From contig NJBN01000002.1 in NCBI GenBank assembly GCA_005223185.1, forward strand, positions 11,118 through 75,117: a stretch of DNA of 64,000 nucleotides, in the 5' to 3' direction. The notes under the pieces were generated by a model. That model had not been told where the DNA came from. It did no database searches and saw nothing but the letters and a program-made list of their open reading frames with translations. Source of the DNA: a candidate division LCP-89 bacterium B3_LCP. Its GTDB lineage: Bacteria; Electryoneota; B3-LCP. This document shows, in pieces, positions 9,354-56,860 of this stretch. Position 1 is the first letter of the stretch, and every line of letters starts with the position of its first letter. The position numbers and the translations under genes were made by a program.

Positions 9354-11468
9354 ATGAAAGAAGGAAAATTTATCTCAGTGCTTATCCCAACGTTTATGGT
9401 AGTCTTGTTCATCGCTCTGCTTTATCCTGTAGGTGTGGATGCGACAAAACTTGAATTGCCGCCGGTGACTATAGATCCAATAGTCAATCGGTCAGACGGG
9501 CAAGTAACATTTGCCACGGAATGGAGTGGCGCTCACTGGGTGGTTGATTACTCACCACTTGATGGAACATATTATGGTGAGAGTAAAGAGAATTGGAATG
9601 CGATATCTTCAATGGGGAATCAAGCAACCTACCCGCTCGTCACCGCTTTTGTACTCCATGACATCTGGGAACTTACTCAGCGAAATGATTATGATTACAA
9701 TACCTTCTGTATAGTAGGTATCGATGGCACGAAGATCACAACCTGGGTTTTTGATGACCTGGATTGCAGGAATGATAGGCGATGGCTGGGTGGTTCCGGT
9801 TTGACCGGACCTCAATACAGTGCTGGTGTGGATGACCGTGGCTACATCGTCCGTAAGAACGACGATCCTACCACTGACGTACATTGGTTTCCCGGTATGG
9901 CTGAACCTGGCGATCCTGGCTGGAGCTGGCCGCCCTGGTACGGCTTCTTTGGTACTTATGGGTTCAATAACACACCCTACACACAGGGTCTTGCTGGTTC
10001 ACAAACTGTCAGTGATCCTCGTGAGATTTACGAAGTAGCTTTTCGAGATCCGACGGAGACCGGGAGCGCCGGATTCCAACCTGGTGTGAGCCTGTATCTG
10101 GCTATATGTGACGTAGCAGGAGACGATCCAAGTTCACGAGCGAATGCGATGCGTATGAAAGGATCGAATACTGTACAGAATCCCGATCCATATAGGTATG
10201 TTCTTATGACTGCCGAAGAAATGGGGATGAATGTTACGTTTGGCGATACTTCAAATTTGCCCATTAATTTCAGAAACGTCACAGGGACTAGCCATACCAC
10301 GACCTATACAGCGTACGACAGCAAGAGTTGGGGCGTTTCTCCCCCATCCGGGAGTTTGGTGTTAGCAGGCGAAACGGATCAAACGATTAACTTCGAAATT
10401 GTGATTCCCGATGATTCTACGCAAGTAGGGGCGAGGGATACTCTCTGGGTAATATCTGATGAGGATACCTGCTATTCCTGGTTCGAGGTAGCTGATGAAT
10501 TAGCCACTGTACAGATAACCCCTGACTCGGCCTTGATACATCCCGATAGCATAGTTTTCTTCGGTGCAACGGGGTATGACTCCCAGGGTAGAATTCTGCA
10601 CATTGAATTAGAAACTGATTGGTATCTCGAACAGCTATTTGGCGACTACGAGGACTGGCCTTGGGATCATCTACCAACATATGTCCCCATAGTATCTCTT
10701 CACGCTCTCGCTCAAAGTCAAGGTTTCCTCATTGCTCAATTACCAGGATTAGTGTTTGGCGCGGCATACATCGTTATTTGTCCGGATGTTGCGACTAATT
10801 TAGTTCCATATAATCCGCCGATCACGATACCTGCTATGGGCGGCATGGCCGAATTCAACATATCCGTAATCAATGATGATCCAAATATGGCTACATTCGA
10901 TATTTGGACTGAAGTAGTACTACCTAATGGAATCGCCTTTGGTCCACTCATCGGTCCCATAACAATCACTGTTCCACCTGGTGTTATGATTGAACGTGAT
11001 CGTTTCCAGATGGTACCTGCCGGTGCTCCATCAGGTGCGTACACCTACTACAGTTATGTGGGTGTGTATCCAGACACAGTTTGGCACGAAGCCAGTTTTG
11101 ATTTCGAAAAACTGCCATTTGGTGATGGCCAACCGGTAGAAGAATGGACTTGCGGAGGAGAGTCGTTTGAAGCATATTTGGCTCAACCTGAGTCAATTGT
11201 TCCGGAAGAGTACAACTTCTCAGCAGCTTATCCTAATCCCTTTAATCCTGCAGCGATGTTAAGTTTTACTCTGCCTGAAGCTTCACAGGTTAAACTGTCG
11301 ATTTATGACATTCAGGGTCGCTTAGTAGCCATACTGGTAGATGAACTGCGTGATGCGGGTACCCACGAGATTACCTTCGATGCGACGAACCTGCCTTCAG
11401 GTGTCTATATCGCCAGGATGGAAGCCAACGATTTCCACCGTACACAGAAATTAGTCATGATTAAATAA
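9354..11468 (+). CDS. Secreted protein with Ig-like domain and Por/T9SS-type C-terminal sorting domain
   Basis: GGAGG RBS and signal peptide. C-terminal 'YPNPFNP..IYDIQGRLV..LPSGVYIARM..KLVMIK'. Confidence 0.85.
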   Translation: MKEGKFISVLIPTFMVVLFIALLYPVGVDATKLELPPVTIDPIVNRSDGQVTFATEWSGAHWVVDYSPLDGTYYGESKENWNAISSMGNQATYPLVTAFVLHDIWELTQRNDYDYNTFCIVGIDGTKITTWVFDDLDCRNDRRWLGGSGLTGPQYSAGVDDRGYIVRKNDDPTTDVHWFPGMAEPGDPGWSWPPWYGFFGTYGFNNTPYTQGLAGSQTVSDPREIYEVAFRDPTETGSAGFQPGVSLYLAICDVAGDDPSSRANAMRMKGSNTVQNPDPYRYVLMTAEEMGMNVTFGDTSNLPINFRNVTGTSHTTTYTAYDSKSWGVSPPSGSLVLAGETDQTINFEIVIPDDSTQVGARDTLWVISDEDTCYSWFEVADELATVQITPDSALIHPDSIVFFGATGYDSQGRILHIELETDWYLEQLFGDYEDWPWDHLPTYVPIVSLHALAQSQGFLIAQLPGLVFGAAYIVICPDVATNLVPYNPPITIPAMGGMAEFNISVINDDPNMATFDIWTEVVLPNGIAFGPLIGPITITVPPGVMIERDRFQMVPAGAPSGAYTYYSYVGVYPDTVWHEASFDFEKLPFGDGQPVEEWTCGGESFEAYLAQPESIVPEEYNFSAAYPNPFNPAAMLSFTLPEASQVKLSIYDIQGRLVAILVDELRDAGTHEITFDATNLPSGVYIARMEANDFHRTQKLVMIK

Positions 11469-42067: not shown

Positions 42068-44668
42068 CTATTTCATCAGTACCATCTTGGCGGTTGAAGT
42101 GAAGCTGCCAGCGGTCATCTTGTAGATGTACACGCCAGAGGCTAAGTCAGTGCCATTGAAGGTAACTTCGTAGGAACCGGCATCCTTCCAGCCGTCAACC
42201 AGCGTTCCAACCATACGTCCGCTGACGTCATAGACAGCGATGGTTACCTTACCAGCGTCAGCGATGCTGTAGCTGATAGAGGTGGTCGGGTTGAACGGGT
42301 TGGGGAAGTTGGTGTTCAGGCTGTATTCAGAAGCCATGCTCACCGTTACTTCGATCGGATCGGAGAAGGTTACCGCACCGCTGATGTCAGTTTCCTTCAG
42401 ACGGTAGGTGTAAGTACCTTCACCGACGTTGTCCAGGTAGCTGTAGGACTGCGGTTCGATGGTTGTTCCGTGACCAGGCAGCGTAGCAATGCTGACGTTG
42501 TCACGCAGTACTGTCCATTCGTAGCAATCTGTTTCACTGGCGGTATTCCAGGTCAACAGGACGCCTTCTTCAACGACGTTAGCGTTAAATGCAGACAGTT
42601 CAACAGGTGTTGGATATTGAGGAACCGGATAAATGCGGATACCCATGTACTGTGCTGGTTCCAGCGGACCAGAACCGTCAAAGGTACATTGGACACCCAT
42701 TGCTCCGAAACTATCCTCGACGCCAACTGTAGCTGAAAGAGCCGTACCTGGTGTCAGGTCGCAGTACATGTAATCGATGGTACCATCATCGTAGAGGATG
42801 AATTCGAACTTGTAGTTACCGCCAGTTGAATAGTGAGGTACGTTATACCATTCACCAATGAAGCGGCCGCCAGCTACGTCGGAATAGTACCATACAGAAC
42901 CACCCAATGAGGGGTTCATGTCATCCCAGTACGGACAGATAAGATCGTTTGGTGTAGCTGCTGTCGGGATGGCATAGTTGATGTACGACGTCAACGTAGA
43001 GGTGAACGACGCCCAACCGTTGGAGCAGAAGTAAATCTGCGTCTGATCCGTGTAGAATGGGAAGGTGAATCCCAGAGCGAACGGACCTTCGTTATCGTCG
43101 TCAAGGACGATGCCGGTGTTGGTACCGGGGAACATCGCATAAGGTTCAGCTGGGTTGATTTCGATCCAGTCATAAGCGATCTCTTCGAACTCGGGCGGAC
43201 CGACGAAGAAGGTGTTGCTGATGACTTCAGGACCGTTACCCGTAGAGTTGTAGGCTACCACACCATATTCGTAGAAACCGTTGAGGGTCATGGTGTTGTC
43301 GTAGTAGTAAGTAGCCAGACCGGTAACCGTGAAGGTTGCTGGATCAGGTCCGTAACGGTAGATGGTGTAGCCATCGATGCTGCCAGCGGGGAAGTAACCA
43401 CCGTTGGCGCCCGTTGTCGGATTGTCCCAGTTGAGTTCGGCTTCTAAGTTCGTTAAAATGCCTGCGCCAACTAAGTTATCTACACCTGCGGGAACGTCCA
43501 GACCAATGGCTGCGTTACCTGAAACGGGAATACCGTCACCGAGACTGTTTACGCACATAACACTGTAGCCATACACGCCAGCGGAGGAAACGATGTCATC
43601 ATAGGCCATGGCAGCACCAGGTGTGCTAACGCCTAAATTATCGATGACTATGCCGTCACGACTGATGACGATGTCTGTAATTTCTGTCAGAGGATCACCA
43701 CCGACGGTCAAAGTCGGGTTGTCCCAGGACAAAGAAGCTAACAGATCAGCTCCGTTGTTAGCGATTGCGAAGTTCTCAGGAGCACCAGGAGCACCAGGAT
43801 CGGCAACTATGGTCAGCTCCAGAACGAACAGCATGTCATCAGGAGTACCCTGAGTTATACCAACCAGGCAAGCCAGACCAGGTGCATATTGGTCGGTCAT
43901 GGACAGACCACCGGCGACCTGCGCAGTCGAACCGGGAACCAGAGGCACAACATAGGCGAAGCCCGTGAGCACGTGGTCAATCGGGTCGTACTGGTGAATG
44001 GTTGTCTGAGGAGTACCGGTCTGATCAAGGATCCACAGCCAGGGACCGTCTGCAGAGTACTCATCAAAGGCCATACCGTAGGCAGCAGTTACGCCGCTTG
44101 TGCCGGTGTACAAGACTGCACCGGAGCGGTCAAAGTTGTAGATCGGACCGCTGAATGACTGCGTCCAGAAAGTATCTGTGTCAGGATCGTAAGCCAGAGC
44201 ACGGTTCGGCAGACTTGGTCCGTTGATGTTCATGGCAGGAACCAGGTTACCAGCTAAGTCGAAGGCTTCCACTGTGGTGGTGACAGATCCATACATATAG
44301 GTCCCGTCATAAGCCAGATCACGCCAGCCCCAACCTGTTGAAGCCGCTGACTGGGTGAAAGAAAAGTTAAATGCACCAGTCGCGTCACATACATAAACGT
44401 AATTTGGATCGGCAGCATTACCGGCGCCGGTAATGTAGAAGTTGCCATCTGCGAAGTGAGGTCCCAACAACTGATTGTCAGCACAGACGACACCAGCGTT
44501 GAAGTAAAAGATCATGTCCCAGGGATCGTCAACAGGTGGATAGTTGACCGGTCCCGCTGTTGGTGATACATCGTTCAGCAACGTTACTTCTTTATCCGCC
44601 CAGGCGGAAGTTACCATAAGCAACGCTACAAACATACATAAAACTGTCATTGTTCGATTCATAACCAC
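42068..44668 (-). CDS. Large secreted protein: propeller-like N-terminus, two FN3-like domains, Ig-like domain and T9SS-type C-terminal domain
   Basis: Signal peptide, two 'WDNPT' modules, 'PVELSAF..LTWNTASE', 'FPNPFNP..YDVSGRMV..LASGVYIYKM..KMVLMK'. Confidence 0.85.
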   Translation of the reverse strand: MVMNRTMTVLCMFVALLMVTSAWADKEVTLLNDVSPTAGPVNYPPVDDPWDMIFYFNAGVVCADNQLLGPHFADGNFYITGAGNAADPNYVYVCDATGAFNFSFTQSAASTGWGWRDLAYDGTYMYGSVTTTVEAFDLAGNLVPAMNINGPSLPNRALAYDPDTDTFWTQSFSGPIYNFDRSGAVLYTGTSGVTAAYGMAFDEYSADGPWLWILDQTGTPQTTIHQYDPIDHVLTGFAYVVPLVPGSTAQVAGGLSMTDQYAPGLACLVGITQGTPDDMLFVLELTIVADPGAPGAPENFAIANNGADLLASLSWDNPTLTVGGDPLTEITDIVISRDGIVIDNLGVSTPGAAMAYDDIVSSAGVYGYSVMCVNSLGDGIPVSGNAAIGLDVPAGVDNLVGAGILTNLEAELNWDNPTTGANGGYFPAGSIDGYTIYRYGPDPATFTVTGLATYYYDNTMTLNGFYEYGVVAYNSTGNGPEVISNTFFVGPPEFEEIAYDWIEINPAEPYAMFPGTNTGIVLDDDNEGPFALGFTFPFYTDQTQIYFCSNGWASFTSTLTSYINYAIPTAATPNDLICPYWDDMNPSLGGSVWYYSDVAGGRFIGEWYNVPHYSTGGNYKFEFILYDDGTIDYMYCDLTPGTALSATVGVEDSFGAMGVQCTFDGSGPLEPAQYMGIRIYPVPQYPTPVELSAFNANVVEEGVLLTWNTASETDCYEWTVLRDNVSIATLPGHGTTIEPQSYSYLDNVGEGTYTYRLKETDISGAVTFSDPIEVTVSMASEYSLNTNFPNPFNPTTSISYSIADAGKVTIAVYDVSGRMVGTLVDGWKDAGSYEVTFNGTDLASGVYIYKMTAGSFTSTAKMVLMK

Positions 44669-49235: not shown

Positions 49236-49340
49236 TGCATCCATTTCCCCGCAAAAAATATCCCCTCTTGACTTTTGGTGATTTATTTTGTATATTGTTA
49301 TTTGGGTACTTGTATTTATCTTAATGTTCTGGCGGTAGCC

Positions 49341-50999
49341 ATGCGCGCTAAATTCATACTTCTACTACTTCCCACCCTTCTTCTGGCACTCCCCTACCCT
49401 CTCTCCGCCCAGTGGACACCTGACCCGTACGATGGTATGGTGACGGTTACCAATGAACCTGGAAATCAGAGTAACATCGAAATCTTAAGCTTATCAGGAA
49501 ATAACACAATTTTAGTTTGGCAAAGTACCAACAATTGGCCTCTGAAGTACTATTATCAGGTACTGGATCTGCGAGGTAGAGCTTTATTACCTGAAAACGG
49601 GGTTCCCCTTATAGATGGAAACTGGGAATATGGTTGGGGGTATGGAGGTTTGATGCCCGACGGCGAGGGCGGCTGCATTGCCGTTTTCGATGACTGGCGA
49701 GATGGATCGCGCCAGATTTACGGCCAGCGAATAGACGCCAGAGGAAGCCGCCTCTGGGGAGAAAACGGGCTTCCCCTGGCGATTTGGCCTGAATACGATC
49801 TGAATAGTTTAGATATAGCCTATGATTCCCTGGGCAATTTCTTTGTTTGTTTTACCTATGAGACGATTCAGAGTGATTATTATTTGTACGCACAGAAATT
49901 CGACAACAACGGAAATTGCCATTGGGGACCCTATGGCATTCCGATTTGCACATATGGTGGATATGCGATTTTTTCAGAAGCCGTACAGGATGAAGAAGGA
50001 GGCATCCTCATTGTCTGGGAGGATAGCAGGCAGAGTGGTAGTTATTATGAGCGTCTATTTTACTTTCAGCATCTGGATGCTGCAGGCAATCCCCTTCTGC
50101 TGGAGAATGGCATTCAGATTCGACTGGCTTCTGAGAGTCTTGATTGCTGCCATGATGGCGTTTCAGACGGCCAGGGTGGCGGCATCTGGTCCTGGCAGAA
50201 GAGCGGACCCGGTATCGATTCTGAACTTGCTGCTTTCCGGCTCTCAGGAGATGGACGTACCATATGGGAGTGGTATGGAGGCATCGTATGCACGCGTTCG
50301 TTTTTAGAAATGAAATCACATCCTGATGACGGCAATATATGGTTAAGTGATAATGAGGATAGAACCGGCCAATATGTAGGTTATATTTATTGCTTCACAG
50401 CTGACGGAACACCGTTGTTTGGTGATGAGGGTCTTCCTTATGGTGGATGGCTTGTACCAGCTCCCGGCGGTATCATTACGATATATTCCCCTTACTCCGA
50501 AGTTAGATCAGTTCTAAGTGCTCAATATGTGCACAATGATGGCAATCCTGGCTGGAAGACCACGATGGCGCAATGTGACACTTTGGGACAGGCTCTTACT
50601 GGACAGTGTGGTGCGCCCGACGGTTTTGGGGGTGCTGTGGTTGCAATCTATGACGACCGCATTCAGACAGCTGGTCATGACATAGCTGCCCAACGGGTTT
50701 GTTGGGATGGCCAGGTCGCCTGGACTAAATATAAACCACCAACAAAAATTACCATCATAGATGCTGTTCTAAACTACCATAACGGAATACTATCATACAA
50801 TCTTCCTCAAGCAGGTATAATAAAACTTGACCTATTTGACGTTTTAGGGCGTAGAATAGAGACCCTGGCAGAGAGCTATAAAGATGCAGGGCAATACAAT
50901 ATACACATAAACAACACACACTTACCTTCAGGAATTTACCTCACAAAACTGACTTCACCTGTAGGCAGCCATGTCGCCAAGATGGTTGTGGTGCGGTAA
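49341..50999 (+). CDS. Secreted repeat (propeller-like) protein with T9SS-type C-terminal domain
   Basis: Signal peptide; repeated 'DGxGG..W.D.R..YxQ..D..G' units; 'FDVLGRRI..LPSGIYL..KMVVVR'. Confidence 0.82.
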   Translation: MRAKFILLLLPTLLLALPYPLSAQWTPDPYDGMVTVTNEPGNQSNIEILSLSGNNTILVWQSTNNWPLKYYYQVLDLRGRALLPENGVPLIDGNWEYGWGYGGLMPDGEGGCIAVFDDWRDGSRQIYGQRIDARGSRLWGENGLPLAIWPEYDLNSLDIAYDSLGNFFVCFTYETIQSDYYLYAQKFDNNGNCHWGPYGIPICTYGGYAIFSEAVQDEEGGILIVWEDSRQSGSYYERLFYFQHLDAAGNPLLLENGIQIRLASESLDCCHDGVSDGQGGGIWSWQKSGPGIDSELAAFRLSGDGRTIWEWYGGIVCTRSFLEMKSHPDDGNIWLSDNEDRTGQYVGYIYCFTADGTPLFGDEGLPYGGWLVPAPGGIITIYSPYSEVRSVLSAQYVHNDGNPGWKTTMAQCDTLGQALTGQCGAPDGFGGAVVAIYDDRIQTAGHDIAAQRVCWDGQVAWTKYKPPTKITIIDAVLNYHNGILSYNLPQAGIIKLDLFDVLGRRIETLAESYKDAGQYNIHINNTHLPSGIYLTKLTSPVGSHVAKMVVVR

Positions 51000-51549: not shown

Positions 51550-53904
51550 ATGAGACGCCTGACATTCCTGGTGGCTTGCATTGCTCTGATCCCCTTCCTG
51601 CTTTTTGCCGCCCAATCAACTCACAAAATTCCGGTTGAAAACTATCCCGTAACAACCGGTGATGTAACTGTAATCGCACCCACCAGTTTTCCGCCCTACC
51701 CAATCCCCGACAATCTGGACACGGTCGGTATAGTCGAAACCATCGGCACCACCTGGTATGAAAACCAGTGCCTGGGCGCTGCCGGACGCCGGATCAACCG
51801 TACGGAAGACGGCTACACTCATTTCGTCTGGGCTAATGGGGAGAATTTCGGGTCGTCACATCGAGTTTACTATAATTATGTCGATCCCTCTGGAAACCAG
51901 GCTTGGCCCGGGACCGGTTATCCGCTTGTATCGGAACAATCAGGTTCACCGACTCTTGATGTAAGTGATGATGGTGGTTTGTTCGCCGCCATGAATTACT
52001 ACAGTCAGTTCTACGGAATGTATCACACTGCTGTTACCTATCCATCTCCATGGCAACCTATTCCCAGCCAACCACCTCTGGCAAATGGAGAGCCGGTACT
52101 CTGGCCCAAGATCAGGTTAGATCGAAATGGAGGTATACATTTGATTGCCAGTACCAATACCTCGATGCCCGGCGATCCTCATCACGATTATTACATTTCA
52201 GGGACTTATAATCCGGTCACATACACAATCAACTGGGATCCTTCCTGGACGCCGATGGATTGGACCATGACTGTAGCGTCCGATATTGCTGCATCCAGCG
52301 TTTCCGACCGGATGGCATACGGATGGACTTACTGCCGCGATCAGGGATTTCCTTTTTACGGCGATTTCAGCCAGCGCAACAATGACATTTACATATTGAT
52401 CGATGAAGACGGCAGTAATCCCGATTATAACGAAGCTTTCAATCTGACCAATTTCTTCTATCCGGATTATGGCTGGTTGCCGGATACGCTCTTAGCCAAC
52501 ATGGATACCCTGCGGGCTTACACGGACGTCTCCCTCTTCTTCGACCAGAATGATTTTCTCCATGTGGTTTTCACCACACCGGCGTATTTTCAGTTGCAGG
52601 GAACTACCTACTGGCACGCATCCATAATCTGGCACTGGTCAGAACAGACGGAGCAGTTTTCAACAATTCACAACGCCTTCGATGATTATTGGTGGAATTT
52701 CGTTGACTGCGGAGCCTGGAATGTCAAGGCGCAACGGGGTCAGTTAGGGCAGGATCCCAGCACCGGTTATCTTTACTGCGCTTATCAGGTGTACGACTGC
52801 GACCCGATGGCAATCAGCGCGGGTGGGTATCCTTCCGGCGAAATCTATATGTCCGTATCGACCGATGGTGGCAACAACTGGGCGGTGGGGACGAACGTAA
52901 CCGAAACAGTAACGCCCAATAATGCAGCTCCCGGTGCATGTTTATCAGAAATCTGTCCCACTATCGCTGAATTTATGGGTGATGGCCGACCGGGACAGTG
53001 CCATTTAATGTATATAATGGACTTCGACGCCGGGAATGTGGTCCAGGGTGAAGGCACCTGGACGTTGAACAACGTGAGTTATCATCAAGTACCTGTTGAT
53101 TCCATCCCGACGGTGCCTCTGTTGCCGCAATGGCCCTATCCGGGAGGGATTTCTTTACATGTGTTTGCCTGGCACAATTTTTACATCGAACTCGCCCCAT
53201 TGAGTATGACTTCTTTCCCCTCCACTGGAGGTATATTAGAATATAACATTGAAGGTGGAAATAACGGCTTTTTTCCGGACGTGGATATCAAAGTTGAGGT
53301 CATGATCCCTGGCGGTGAAATAATCCCGGTAATGGGTCCCATATATAATTTCCCCATGCATCCAGGCTGGTCAGTCAGTCGCAACAGAGAATTGCTCATA
53401 CCAGCAGGTGCGCCTGAAGGAAATTACGTTTTGTACGCCTGTATAGGTCAGGACAATACCATTTTCCCCTGGACCATTTACGCTGTCGATCATTTATACT
53501 TCAGCAAAGAGGGAGCTGAAGGGACATGGTCAAGTCCCTGGTTTGCAGATAGCGGGGAATCATTTGAGGAACTGCTGACCGCCGATCCGCCGGATTCTCC
53601 AGCCAGGTTCCAAGTATATCAAAACTATCCCAATCCTTTCAACCCGACGACAGTTATCAGTTTCAATCTGCCAGTTGCAAGTTTGGTGAAGTTGGAGGTG
53701 TTTGATATAAATGGGCGCAATGTAGGGGCGAGGCATGCCTCGCCCTCGGGTCGGCACAAGACCGACCCCTACGCGAATGGGTACTATCCCTCCGGTACCC
53801 ACCAGATTACCTTTGATGGATCGGGGTTGGCGTCGGGGATATATATCTACCGTTTGAACGCAGGAGATTTCACGACATCAGGTAAAATGATATTGGTGAA
53901 ATGA
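51550..53904 (+). CDS. Secreted Asp-box/propeller-like protein with Ig-like domain and T9SS-type C-terminal domain (REP inserted in frame)
   Basis: GGAGG RBS, signal peptide, 'SVSTDGGNNW', 'YPNPFNP..LASGIYIYRL..KMILVK'. Confidence 0.85.
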   Translation: MRRLTFLVACIALIPFLLFAAQSTHKIPVENYPVTTGDVTVIAPTSFPPYPIPDNLDTVGIVETIGTTWYENQCLGAAGRRINRTEDGYTHFVWANGENFGSSHRVYYNYVDPSGNQAWPGTGYPLVSEQSGSPTLDVSDDGGLFAAMNYYSQFYGMYHTAVTYPSPWQPIPSQPPLANGEPVLWPKIRLDRNGGIHLIASTNTSMPGDPHHDYYISGTYNPVTYTINWDPSWTPMDWTMTVASDIAASSVSDRMAYGWTYCRDQGFPFYGDFSQRNNDIYILIDEDGSNPDYNEAFNLTNFFYPDYGWLPDTLLANMDTLRAYTDVSLFFDQNDFLHVVFTTPAYFQLQGTTYWHASIIWHWSEQTEQFSTIHNAFDDYWWNFVDCGAWNVKAQRGQLGQDPSTGYLYCAYQVYDCDPMAISAGGYPSGEIYMSVSTDGGNNWAVGTNVTETVTPNNAAPGACLSEICPTIAEFMGDGRPGQCHLMYIMDFDAGNVVQGEGTWTLNNVSYHQVPVDSIPTVPLLPQWPYPGGISLHVFAWHNFYIELAPLSMTSFPSTGGILEYNIEGGNNGFFPDVDIKVEVMIPGGEIIPVMGPIYNFPMHPGWSVSRNRELLIPAGAPEGNYVLYACIGQDNTIFPWTIYAVDHLYFSKEGAEGTWSSPWFADSGESFEELLTADPPDSPARFQVYQNYPNPFNPTTVISFNLPVASLVKLEVFDINGRNVGARHASPSGRHKTDPYANGYYPSGTHQITFDGSGLASGIYIYRLNAGDFTTSGKMILVK
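53722..53772. repeat. Inverted GTAG-REP doublet inside a CDS
   Basis: GTAG-gggcgaggcatgcctcgccc, then tc, then gggtcggcacaagaccgaccc-CTAC; 51 nt, frame-preserving. Confidence 0.85.
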
Positions 53905-54058
53905 ACAGGGGAGGACAGACATTCTTGTCTGTCTGGTAATTATCGAATGGTGTCAGAGAGGAATGTCTAACCTCCCCCAAACGTGTTAAATGTTGCGTCA
54001 GGTCTTGGACGCCGAAGGCGGGTGTGACCTGACGCAAGTTAACAAAACAGGAGGAATC

Positions 54059-56371
54059 ATGAAACATCTGATTATTTCCTTAACCTTAATGACCCTGATC
54101 CCGGTATTCTCCTTCGCATCGACGAAACCACTAAAAACCCCGATGGTAAACTACCCGGTCATGACAGGAAATGAAGTGTACCCGGGATCACCGAAGTCCA
54201 CACCGCCTCTACTTTTAGATAATCTCGACGTCATTGGAGAGATCGATACAATCGGTACCACTTGGGTCAAAATTCAGCACAATGGTACCATAGGTCGAAT
54301 GATTGAGAGAAGCACCGACGGCTACACGGATTTCGTCTGGATGAACGGTTTGGACTATGGTGTCATCAACCGCCACATTTACTATAACTTCATCGACCCC
54401 CTTGGCGTCCAGGCTTGGCCCGGTGGTTATCCGGTGGAGTCTTCCCAACGTGCCGGTTATACTACCATGGATGTTGATTTTAATGGAATAGCCTTTCCTG
54501 CTTTCCATTGGACAAATACTCCGGGTGGTGATTTCTGGACAGCGGTAGCAACAGATTTCTTTGCGCATACAGGTACGTTCATCACCTATGAGACGCTACC
54601 ATATGCTGGAGTGGATAAAATCATCTGGCCAAAGGTTCAATTCGATAGAAACCAGGTACTGCAAATAGTGTCTACAGAAAATCCGGGAGGTTTTGAATCC
54701 TATAGACATTTCTATACGACTGGAACCTACAATCCCTTGACTTACAGCATAGTTTATGAACCTTGGGAAGAGATGACCTGGACCATGACCATAGCCGGCG
54801 ATGTGGCGGCTTCGGACATCTCAGACCGCGTCGCTTACGGATGGACCTACTGCCGAGATGACGGTTTCCCTGCGCCTGGCGGAGATTACAGCCAGTACAA
54901 TAACGATATCCACATTCTAATAGATGATGATGGATTGGATCCTGATTGGAGCCAGGCTGTTAACTTAACGGATTTCATTCCCCCCATACCTTTTTGGCCA
55001 CCCTTTACACAAAATGGGGACACATTACGAGCTTACACTGATATGTCCCTGTTCTTCGACCAGGATGATTACCTTCACGTTGCTTTCACCACGCCTTCCT
55101 ATTTCGAAATTCAGGGTATAATGTATTGGCACGCATCCATAATCTGGCACTGGACCGAACAATATCCCGATGAGTTCGTCATGATCCATAACGCATTCGA
55201 TGACTTCTGGTGGAATACAGTTGACTGCGGCACCTGGAATGTGAAGGCGCAGAGACCTTCATTGGCGCAGGATCCCAGTACGGGTTACCTCTATTGTTCC
55301 TATCAGGTCTTCGACTGCGATACTAATGCTATCAGCGCTGGAGATCTTCCCTCGGGAGAAGTTTTCGTTTCGGTTTCCACCGACGGTGGAATGAACTGGG
55401 CTCTGGGTACTAATATCACCCAAACTGTCACACCTGATAACGGAGCGCCTGGAAGCTGTTTCAACGAAATATGCCCCAATATGGCTAAGCTTGTAGACGG
55501 CACCTGTCACATCATGTATGTGATGGATCACGATGCCGCCGATCCATACCGTTGAGCTACTCCAACGATAGGTGAGATCATCTATCACAAAGTACCGGTT
55601 GACCTGATTCCCCAAACGCCTTTGGTTCAGCAGAATGTGCCCTTTCATGTGGATTATCCTCCCTTTGGGCCCTTTATAGCTGTTAATTCAATGGGAACCA
55701 CTATTTTTTCTAATGAAGACGATACGCTGCTTTACAACATAGTTGGTTGGAACGATCAGCCCCGCATGGTAACTGTGGACATATGGGCTGATGTGACGCT
55801 GCCTGATGGCAGTATCAGAGGTCCAATTTTCACTCCAGTTTATGATTTCGTGATGTATTCGTGCTATTTGGATACAAGCTGGTCCATTATCCGTAATCGC
55901 GATTTGTGCATCCCCGGATTCGCTCCTGAGGGTACATACCTTCTCAATGTCTATATAGGTGAATATGATCCGATAAATCCTACCATAGAGGCTCTGAACC
56001 ATCTCTATTTCTACAAAAATGAATCAACAGGAGGTGGTGGTGACCTATGGTTGGGCGGCGTTGACCTGTTGTCCGTTGAAGATAATTCATTGACCACACC
56101 TGTTTTATATTCAAACTACCCCAATCCTTTCAACCCAACGACAGTTATCAGTTTCGATTTGCCAGTTGCGAGTCTGGTGAAGTTGGAGGTGTTTGATGTA
56201 AATGGGCGTAATGTTAACATGTCGGGGTCAGGGACGACCCCGACTACGGAATTCGGCGTTGGCACCCACCAGATTACTTTTGATGGGTCGGGATTGGCGT
56301 CGGGGATATATATCTATCGTATAAGTGCTGGGGAGGTTTCGGTGACGGGTAAGATGGTGCTGATGAAATAA
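54059..56371 (+). pseudogene. Tandem paralog of 51550-53904 interrupted by one in-frame TGA (55553-55555): nonsense allele or recoded gene
   Basis: ORFs 53990-55555 and 55622-56371 share a frame. The sequence across the stop (MDHDAADPYR*ATPTIGEIIYHKVPVD) aligns to the paralog MDFDAGNVVQGEGTWTLNNVSYHQVPVD. Confidence 0.75.
56221..56247 (-). repeat. Single GTAG-REP inside a CDS
   Basis: gtcggggtc-agggac-gaccccgac-tac; reverse complement reads GTAGTCGGGGTC..GACCCCGAC. Confidence 0.75.
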
Positions 56372-56860
56372 CCTGGGGAGGATAGGCGCCACTAAAGGGG
56401 CTTACGCCTATTCTTGCCCGTCGGATAACAATACCACAGAGGTGTCGGACAGGAATGTCCAATCTCCCCCTACTATGTAGAGGAGACTAAGTTCATCAGC
56501 CGGTGGACACCGTCCACTAACTAATCTGCGTAATCAACGGTTCAGGTTCTTCCTTCCGCAATATCATAATTATCTCCCTAAATATCCCAAAGTAAATACT
56601 CCATTTTCGGGTTGACTTTTCCATGAATTATTTCGTATCTTATTTGTTCAAACTCAAATCCAACCATTTGGGCTTGAGTAGAAGATAAATGGTTTTATTG
56701 TCTAAATACGGTACAGATTTGTTTGATTTAATTGATCTTTAAGGGTGTTAAATGCAAGCTGCTTCAATCTTACGCTGGAAAAATTTGAAATTATCCTGGA
56801 ATCAAGTTAACATACAGTGCCTCTTAGTTTTGTCGATTCTCGAGGCGAAAGAGTTGTGAT

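Follow-up and report, generated by a model that had tools for sequence, protein, structure and literature searches.

Repetitive extragenic palindromes (REPs) lie outside genes by definition, usually just 3' of them. What, then, are REPs doing in frame inside the secretion signals of two neighbouring genes? The question is raised by a 64,000-nucleotide stretch of contig NJBN01000002.1 (positions 11,118 to 75,117) from the candidate division LCP-89 bacterium B3_LCP, hereafter the window. It holds two tandem paralogs, 53% identical to each other, both of which are predicted from profile matches to terminate in a type A sorting domain of the type IX secretion system (T9SS), here called the CTD for its C-terminal place. 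We consider it probable that the two paralogs carry a lineage-specific form of this domain, a REP-slot CTD: it would contain an in-frame slot for REPs whose occupants turn over, it would spread between genes as a cassette, and selection would keep its reading frame. The paralogs, their palindromes and the other CTD genes of the window are as follows.

51550..53904, plus strand: paralog 1, a 784-aa predicted T9SS cargo protein with a REP-slot CTD at its end, from its open reading frame (ORF) and hidden Markov model (HMM) matches
53620..53721, plus strand: N-terminal half of the paralog 1 CTD (QNYPNPFNP...FDINGRN), seed of the N-half HMM; AlphaFold strands E11-18 and E22-30
53722..53745, plus strand: REP of kind hpA, GTAG followed by a perfect 10+10 bp palindrome (53726-53745)
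53748..53772, plus strand: REP of kind hpB, a 7 bp stem with a 7 nt loop (stem-loop 53748-53768), then CTAC
53794..53901, plus strand: C-terminal half of the paralog 1 CTD (GTHQITFDG...GKMILVK), seed of the C-half HMM; AlphaFold strands E60-67, E74-82 and E85-93
53990..56371, plus strand: paralog 2, one reading frame with an in-frame TGA; its REP-slot CTD is at 56108-56368
56221..56247, plus strand: REP of kind hpC, a 9 bp stem with a 6 nt loop (stem-loop 56221-56244), then TAC
11220..11465, plus strand: REP-free CTD with the canonical 12-aa segment LVAILVDELRDA
42071..42316, minus strand: REP-free CTD with segment MVGTLVDGWKDA, the structural control (AlphaFold mean predicted local distance difference test, pLDDT, 90.0; segment forming strand E35-44)
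49275..50999, plus strand: gene with a REP-free CTD, segment RIETLAESYKDA (locus L011, 36-nt segment)

Both paralogs score above the cut-offs of the two models of this domain. Against PF18962 (cut-off 27), paralog 1 reaches 30.6 bits and the 55622-56371 part of paralog 2 reaches 38.6 bits; against TIGR04183 (cut-off 23), the scores are 34.5 and 40.3 bits. The match stops 3 residues short of the stop codon in both. After a conserved G-R, the three other CTDs of the window have a segment of 12 aa, and the corresponding segment is 25 aa in paralog 1 (in the context ...GRNVGARHASPSGRHKTDPYANGYYPSGTH...) and 17 aa in paralog 2 (...GRNVNMSGSGTTPTTEFGVGTH...). These are the segments and lengths that a first-pass annotation, made from the letters of the window, had quoted.

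The extra length is encoded by palindromes that read through in frame. In paralog 1, hpA reads V-G-A-R-H-A-S-P, its GTA supplying the conserved Val codon, and hpB reads G-R-H-K-T-D-P-Y; in paralog 2, hpC reads S-G-S-G-T-T-P-T-T. The stems measure 7-10 bp, with GTAG or (C)TAC directly adjoining. In-frame GTAG/CTAC palindromes after G-R-x-V, as the first-pass annotation described them, are plain in both genes, with three amendments. In paralog 2 a stop codon, TGA, interrupts the frame ahead of the CTD. The doublet that it reported at 53722-53772 is present, running from GTAGGGG to CCCCTAC, but the two perfect hairpins in between belong to different REP kinds and are not copies of one. Its claim of a single insertion site holds approximately: the start of the REP lies 6 nt farther 3' in paralog 2, after GTT AAC AT, at a codon position that is near but not identical. 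Both palindrome regions are predicted to fold strongly as RNA, at -34.4 kcal/mol (z -4.6) in paralog 1 and -18.8 kcal/mol (z -3.4) in paralog 2; the corresponding region of a REP-free CTD gives z -0.4.

How widespread is this arrangement? We searched the genome (3,794,239 bp in 18 contigs) in six frames with separate HMMs for the two halves of the CTD, and paired the halves by distance, ignoring frame. The 302 N-half and 319 C-half matches form 295 pairs. The segment between the halves is 36 nt long in 231 of these; in the other 64 it runs from 27 to 87 nt, and all 64 of these lengths are multiples of 3. REPs occupy 56 of the 64 non-canonical segments, or about one in five of all CTDs (56/295), leaving eight without a recognisable REP. 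All conserved CTD residues are kept in the REP-bearing CTDs. The first-pass annotation had suggested a REP hot spot, and the CTD site is a genuine one: REPs at this site are found far beyond the two window genes, and not one of the 64 altered segments breaks the frame.

The REPs of the 56 CTDs fall into at least 14 sequence kinds, all tagged by GTAG/CTAC, which were assigned by kind-specific patterns for 55 CTDs and by eye for one. Some of these CTDs hold a single REP and others a doublet made of different kinds; there are also units that carry a 15-nt mini-hairpin inside their loop. Rather than being purely added, the inserts mostly replace 12-24 nt of the segment; an hpB in reverse orientation, for example, gives a segment of 42 nt, just 6 nt above the canonical length. 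The site after G-R (site 1) has a companion: a second place for in-frame REPs is the turn between beta5 and the last strand, beta6 (YRLE-[SGSGTTPTT..]-GKMVLMK). This second site is filled in 13 CTDs, mostly by hpC, and seven of the 13 also have a REP at site 1.

In the whole genome there are 192 perfect GC-rich hairpins with GTAG/CTAC at their flanks. Of these, 102 are intergenic, 42 lie in site 1 windows, 27 lie elsewhere in CTDs or within about 60 nt 3' of them, and 21 lie in other ORFs. Site 1 windows amount to 19,793 of the 3,794,239 bp (0.52%) yet hold 42 of the 192 hairpins, a concentration at the CTD segment far above chance.

The CTD halves that remained unpaired (7 N-half and 24 C-half) are mostly divergent CTDs with normal spacing, and none of them is a frame-broken REP-bearing CTD. 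Three orphan C-terminal fragments of slot CTDs carry REPs and have no intact N-half or cargo (regions C2:34690, C16:115155 and C7:600163); they could be rearrangement remnants or conversion donors. A small family of CTD-like tails, nearly identical to one another (…GTHTHIWDAA…YIIQLETPQQT…), with stops or frameshifts upstream (C7:20100, C7:555916, C4:49015 and C13:78069), looks like pseudogenes or parts of a repeated element.

Did REPs enter CTDs once or many times? Leaving out the insert and site 2, we built trees of the CTD flanks for 294 of the 295 rows (one at a contig end was dropped). In the FastTree tree, a single clade with 57 members (support 94) contains 55 of the 56 REP-bearing CTDs; an IQ-TREE quick tree places 54 of 56 in a pure clade (Shimodaira-Hasegawa-like approximate likelihood ratio, SH-aLRT, 94). 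On the flank trees the presence of a REP changes 3 times, compared with a minimum of 47 and a mean of 51.8 in 200 label shuffles. The kind of REP behaves quite otherwise: it changes 31-33 times among the 56 CTDs, an upper estimate given the short alignment, against at least 35 and on average 39 changes once the labels are shuffled. To the choice between single and repeated insertion that the first-pass annotation had posed, the trees return a two-part answer: the REP-bearing CTDs appear to be one subfamily, inside which REP content is nearly scrambled.

The same mixture is visible among neighbours. Five adjacent genes on contig 7 have four different REP contents, and a single 24-nt hpA unit is the whole difference between two of them. 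Neighbouring genes differ by such an hpA unit or by the 15-nt nested hairpin, and the window paralogs are another differing pair. The cargo is mixed as well. Clustering of the 281 of 295 CTD genes with a long enough cargo part yields 113 cargo families; 22 of these bear slot CTDs, 10 of them alongside REP-free members. Since one CTD clade sits on many cargo families, the CTD would seem to move between genes; the idea, also raised in the first-pass annotation, of a CTD cassette copied onto cargo genes has some truth in it, given this cassette-like subfamily. In the protein family of the window paralogs, three members have slot CTDs with three REP contents and a fourth has a canonical CTD, as do all the full-length homologues fetched from six relatives. 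REPs seem only exceptionally to have entered ordinary CTDs independently (about 3 CTDs with a canonical tail); turnover in an occupied slot seems to be the rule.

Several of the REP kinds also have a life outside the CTD. As the first-pass annotation anticipated, the palindromes do occur extragenically: 11 of the 32 copies of hpB are intergenic, as are 23 of the 43 copies of hpC; of the remaining hpC copies, 6 occupy CTD site 1 and 8 the C-half of the domain. For five kinds (hpB, hpC, b, h and the nested hairpin), at least one third of the copies lie outside CTD coding sequence. hpA stands at the other end, with 9 of its 10 copies (at most 3 mismatches) at CTD site 1. Genes for REP-associated tyrosine transposases (RAYTs) with matching REPs can also be found, among 10 matches to Y1_Tnp (PF01797) in the genome. 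The gene at C18:282954-283436 scores 97 bits on NF047646, the model of the REP-associated tyrosine transposase (cut-off 80), and is flanked by inverted copies of hpB. A RAYT-like gene at C18:285047-285490, at 78.4 bits just below that cut-off, is flanked by copies of hpC, and other palindromes flank further genes of the Y1 transposase type. These matches suggest that the CTD palindromes belong to RAYT-serviced REP populations, with mobilisation by a RAYT as the predicted route.

Two kinds of palindrome deserve a remark of their own. Kind h (GGGCGCACACACAGGTGCGCCCCTAC and variants) has 11 of its 16 copies within about 100 nt 3' of the stop of a CTD gene (C4:17057-17078, C7:474439-474460 and C6:21760-21781, for instance), so REPs associate with the ends of CTD genes outside the coding sequence too. 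The 15-nt mini-hairpin (GCCCC-TTCG-GGGGC type), nested in hpB or hpC loops, has 19 copies, 12 of them intergenic, and occurs in CTDs too; examples are at C10:3540-3596, C7:474246-474302, C1:173105-173170 and in the C15:3056 region.

What does a REP do to the domain that receives it? The CTD is predicted to fold as a beta-sandwich of six strands. With an alignment of 95 CTDs, AlphaFold finds six strands in the REP-free control, where the 12-residue segment makes up most of strand 3. The paralog 1 CTD is modelled with a mean pLDDT of 81.4 and the same five other strands, and strand 3 is reduced to its end, E55-57. The first-pass annotation had pictured the insert as a loop. This part of its reading falls: in the models the insert replaces the first part of beta-strand 3, and no loop receives it. 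Its further idea, that the REPs diversify the secretion signal, is conjecture.

Of the machinery that would handle such domains, PorU and PorV were searched for, and the genome has a match to each. PorU (NF033707) is matched at C12:468303-471527 with 743.9 bits (cut-off 420), and the gene next to it is PorV-like, its 168.6 bits (cut-off 250) spanning positions 18-365 of the model's 367. Export by the T9SS and removal of the CTD are predicted for REP-slot CTDs. In Porphyromonas it is established that the type A CTD serves as a tag for export, which PorU, a sortase, afterwards cuts off. Tolerance of REPs in the CTD is plausible because the domain would be no more than an export tag removed by PorU.

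How, then, might a slot of this kind have arisen? In an early event, the start of strand 3, right after G-R-x-V, would have been replaced by a REP. The occupied site would then attract further REP units, which could be added beside the residents, nested in their loops or exchanged for them. The slot CTD would be passed among the roughly 300 CTD-coding gene 3' ends by recombination or gene conversion, and selection for an intact, exportable CTD would eliminate out-of-frame products. A bolder version makes the slot a working module in which RAYT nicking at the palindromes triggers gene conversion between gene 3' ends. We regard this version as rather unlikely. If it were right, CTD cassettes would reach new cargo genes and be traded by about 300 secreted proteins, and a domesticated HUH transposase together with its REPs would shape the secretome of a whole bacterial family.

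Several points tell against a slot with turnover and cassette spread. Our gene calls are crude, being longest ORFs. The flank trees rest on just 177-201 nt, and their poor resolution may inflate the count of changes in REP kind; the one-clade result could come partly from conversion tracts that carry the flanks along. Paralog 2 has its in-frame TGA at 55553-55555, upstream of its CTD, and translation of that CTD may fail. Residues 36-54 of the paralog 1 CTD are mostly coil at a pLDDT of about 59, which leaves its competence to fold not assured. Finally, hpA and kinds c, i, j, k and l occur almost exclusively inside CTDs in this genome, and a flanked RAYT was not found for any of these six. They are as likely to have spread with the CTD as by transposition, and their near confinement to CTDs weakens, for these kinds, the picture of an extragenic pool.

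The slot CTD is not peculiar to one genome. From five further genera of this family we took the 30 loci best matching the CTD of paralog 1, a sample enriched for REPs and not a measure of prevalence. Its 36 CTD segments include 28 non-canonical ones, each with a length divisible by 3 and with GTAG palindromes. Some of these relatives' REP kinds are common to this genome and others are particular to their own. The pattern F-D-x-x-G-x-x followed by GTAGGGG has 35 matches in this genome, 34 of them in REP-bearing CTDs, and between 1 and 33 matches in each of 6 of 8 family relatives; in a seventh relative (G003) the sequenced loci show the feature with a variant junction. The pattern has no match in 70 genomes of the phylum's other eight families, and the reversed control pattern has a single match across 79 genomes. 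GTAGGGG...CCCCTAC palindromes, by comparison, occur in 46 of the 79 genomes, other families included. A looser CTD-plus-REP pattern gave 43 matches in one family member (G005) and 2 in four REP-rich genomes of other families, neither of the 2 being a CTD.

Wider still, a stricter pattern run over about 185,000 species genomes returned 56 loci, of which 39 read as CTDs and 17 as chance matches. Four uncultured-bacterium assemblies resembling this family account for 37 of the 39. The other two are from metagenome-assembled genomes (MAGs). In the Bacteroidota MAG CTD (L128:150-420), a 28-residue insert with a 9 bp palindrome inside follows right after G-R-N-V; in an unclassified MAG, a CTD-like tail (L105:150-420) has GTAG and a 10 bp palindrome at the corresponding place. 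The CTD site may tolerate inserts in other lineages too. An assembly artefact was considered and set aside, as the arrangement recurs in at least 7 other genome assemblies.

Could REPs instead have entered ordinary CTDs again and again, each time at the same site, through RAYTs or host processes that recognise, for example, the GTAG of Val-Ala codons? Such recurrent insertion would be helped by GTAG already standing exactly at the Val codon in 26 of the 231 canonical CTDs, and 40 of the 56 REP-bearing CTDs take their conserved Val codon from the GTAG of the REP itself. The canonical tail L-[VI]-N-[GS]-W-R-D-A survives in three CTDs (C7_12857, C7_14809 and C15_82233), which is what a recent insertion would leave. 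The main clade excludes one REP-bearing CTD, and two unrelated MAG loci, L105 and L128, have similar inserts at this position in their CTD-like domains. Yet GTAG is too frequent in the genome to account for the specificity, most inserts replace part of the segment rather than add to it, and genomes of other families that are rich in both REPs and CTDs lack a CTD match. Moreover, 55 of the 56 fall in one clade. We judge recurrent insertion unlikely as the general rule.

The REP units are conserved to a degree that their surroundings are not. Between this genome and another genus, the CTD flanks are 55-76% identical and third codon positions in the flanks agree at 34-52%, whereas 53 of the 54 positions of the hpA+hpB core match (about 98%). 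Between G002 and G008, two members of one genus whose gene DNA is about 70% identical, short pieces of REP match at 94-100%, and no clear orthologues of slot-CTD genes were found between these two. Copies inside CTDs depart less from the family consensus than copies outside (1.19 versus 2.21 mismatches for hpB and 1.00 versus 1.71 for hpC), a consensus that the in-CTD copies themselves partly define. Of the in-CTD copies, 20 of 21 for hpB and 10 of 14 for hpC have an unbroken stem. The in-CTD REPs are not decaying relics: they are either renewed from a RAYT-constrained pool or themselves selected.

The second of these options leads to another explanation, in which the palindromes are kept for a function of their own in mRNA or DNA, such as a translational pause that aids export, mRNA stability or processing, or a RAYT nicking site that promotes CTD exchange. 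The great stability of the two window hairpins, the intact stems, the conservation of REP cores far beyond nearby synonymous sites, the fixed position and the retention of the feature in 7 of 8 family relatives all speak for it. Set against them is the variability of the hairpins, which differ greatly in sequence, number (1-3 units) and strength, and the 239 of 295 paired CTDs that do without any; steady replacement from a RAYT-constrained REP pool explains the conservation equally well. A function of this sort strikes us as improbable. That a single ancient insertion was inherited by duplication and then diverged, or that these are decaying non-functional CTDs, is far less credible still: the single clade, the many tandem arrays, a few decayed stems (C4_16877, C7_17186 and C13_90435) and the three orphan fragments would fit, but fourteen unrelated palindrome kinds are not interconvertible by point change, in-CTD copies match extragenic and RAYT-flanking ones (with counterparts for hpB, hpC, b, h and the nested hairpin), and the frame is kept in 64 of 64 cases, where chance would give one third, with conserved CTD residues retained.

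The reading of a REP slot with turnover and cassette spread can be set beside several known systems. REP families have a cognate Y1 transposase gene with inverted flanking copies; their units are clustered, and copies stay near a master sequence. In REP/REPIN-RAYT systems and clusters of bacterial interspersed mosaic elements (BIMEs), the units are short GC-rich GTAG-tagged hairpins with several families per genome (Nunvar 2010, Bertels and Rainey 2011, Ton-Hoang 2012). The palindromes described here share with these the GTAG hairpins, the several families, the RAYT genes with flanking copies and the clustered units. They differ from extragenic REPs in that 69 of the 192 tagged hairpins (36%) are in CTD-coding DNA or within about 60 nt of it, and 42 are translated.

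Measured against the T9SS type A CTD (TIGR04183/PF18962), the slot subfamily agrees in its C-terminal place, in scoring above cut-off, in the predicted six-strand beta-sandwich and in the presence of PorU and PorV-like genes. It departs from it in the first part of strand 3, which consists of 14-29 residues encoded by mobile palindromes. Rickettsia palindromic elements (RPEs), the subject of work by Ogata et al., are reportedly inserted in frame in coding genes whose proteins are still expressed. They resemble the present case as in-frame palindromic inserts in coding genes; they differ in being longer, in entering many genes at varied places, in having no known tie to a secretion tag and in having no known associated RAYT.

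A close precedent is the intragenic GTAG/CGTC REP. In the portions available of Di Nocera et al. (2013, PMC3733652), GTAG palindromes lie in frame in functional-looking genes, for example in Opitutus, as single units or dimers that add 20-30 residues, and RAYTs are proposed to mobilise them. There, a genome has few such inserts; they sit at varied sites in unrelated proteins, and many belong to DNA repair genes. The GTAG palindromes in frame and the single or dimeric units are common to both cases. No domain-specific site appears in those portions of the paper, whereas here one position of one domain is filled in 56 of 295 copies, by 14 kinds of REP, and in several genera. Full-text literature searches found no account of REPs inside T9SS sorting domains. 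In-frame intragenic REPs are thus already known; what is new here is the fixed CTD site.

This makes the slot CTD an unusually regular instance of mobile DNA within coding sequence. Previous in-frame cases resemble scattered accidents; here one fixed position of a domain is used in dozens of genes and across genera, in frame among all cases examined and with REP kinds that differ between adjacent genes. The system is a natural one for asking how far a T9SS sorting signal can change and still work, whether a cleaved export tag is a safe harbour for mobile DNA in genes, and whether RAYT/REP systems drive domain shuffling. There is a practical side as well: peptides encoded by REPs will confront gene callers and domain models in many metagenome proteins and are worth recognising as such.

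Two smaller observations concern the window genes. The in-frame TGA of paralog 2 has a parallel in a second paralog of the same cargo family, at C12:2198-4525 on the minus strand and outside the window, which also contains a single in-frame TGA. Selenocysteine or another form of recoding was considered at the paralog 2 TGA and rejected, as the second paralog's TGA falls in another alignment column and homologues have ordinary residues there. From the alignment, the two TGAs look like recent nonsense mutations or sequencing errors.

The other observation concerns the DNA directly 3' of the two genes, where long imperfect inverted repeats follow paralog 1 (53908-54037) and paralog 2 (56379-56475). 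Those behind paralog 1 are:

53908..54037, no strand assigned: two intergenic inverted repeats just 3' of paralog 1, with 24-nt arms at 53908-53977 and 12-nt arms at 53993-54037

The inverted repeats behind both genes may be terminators or more palindromic elements.

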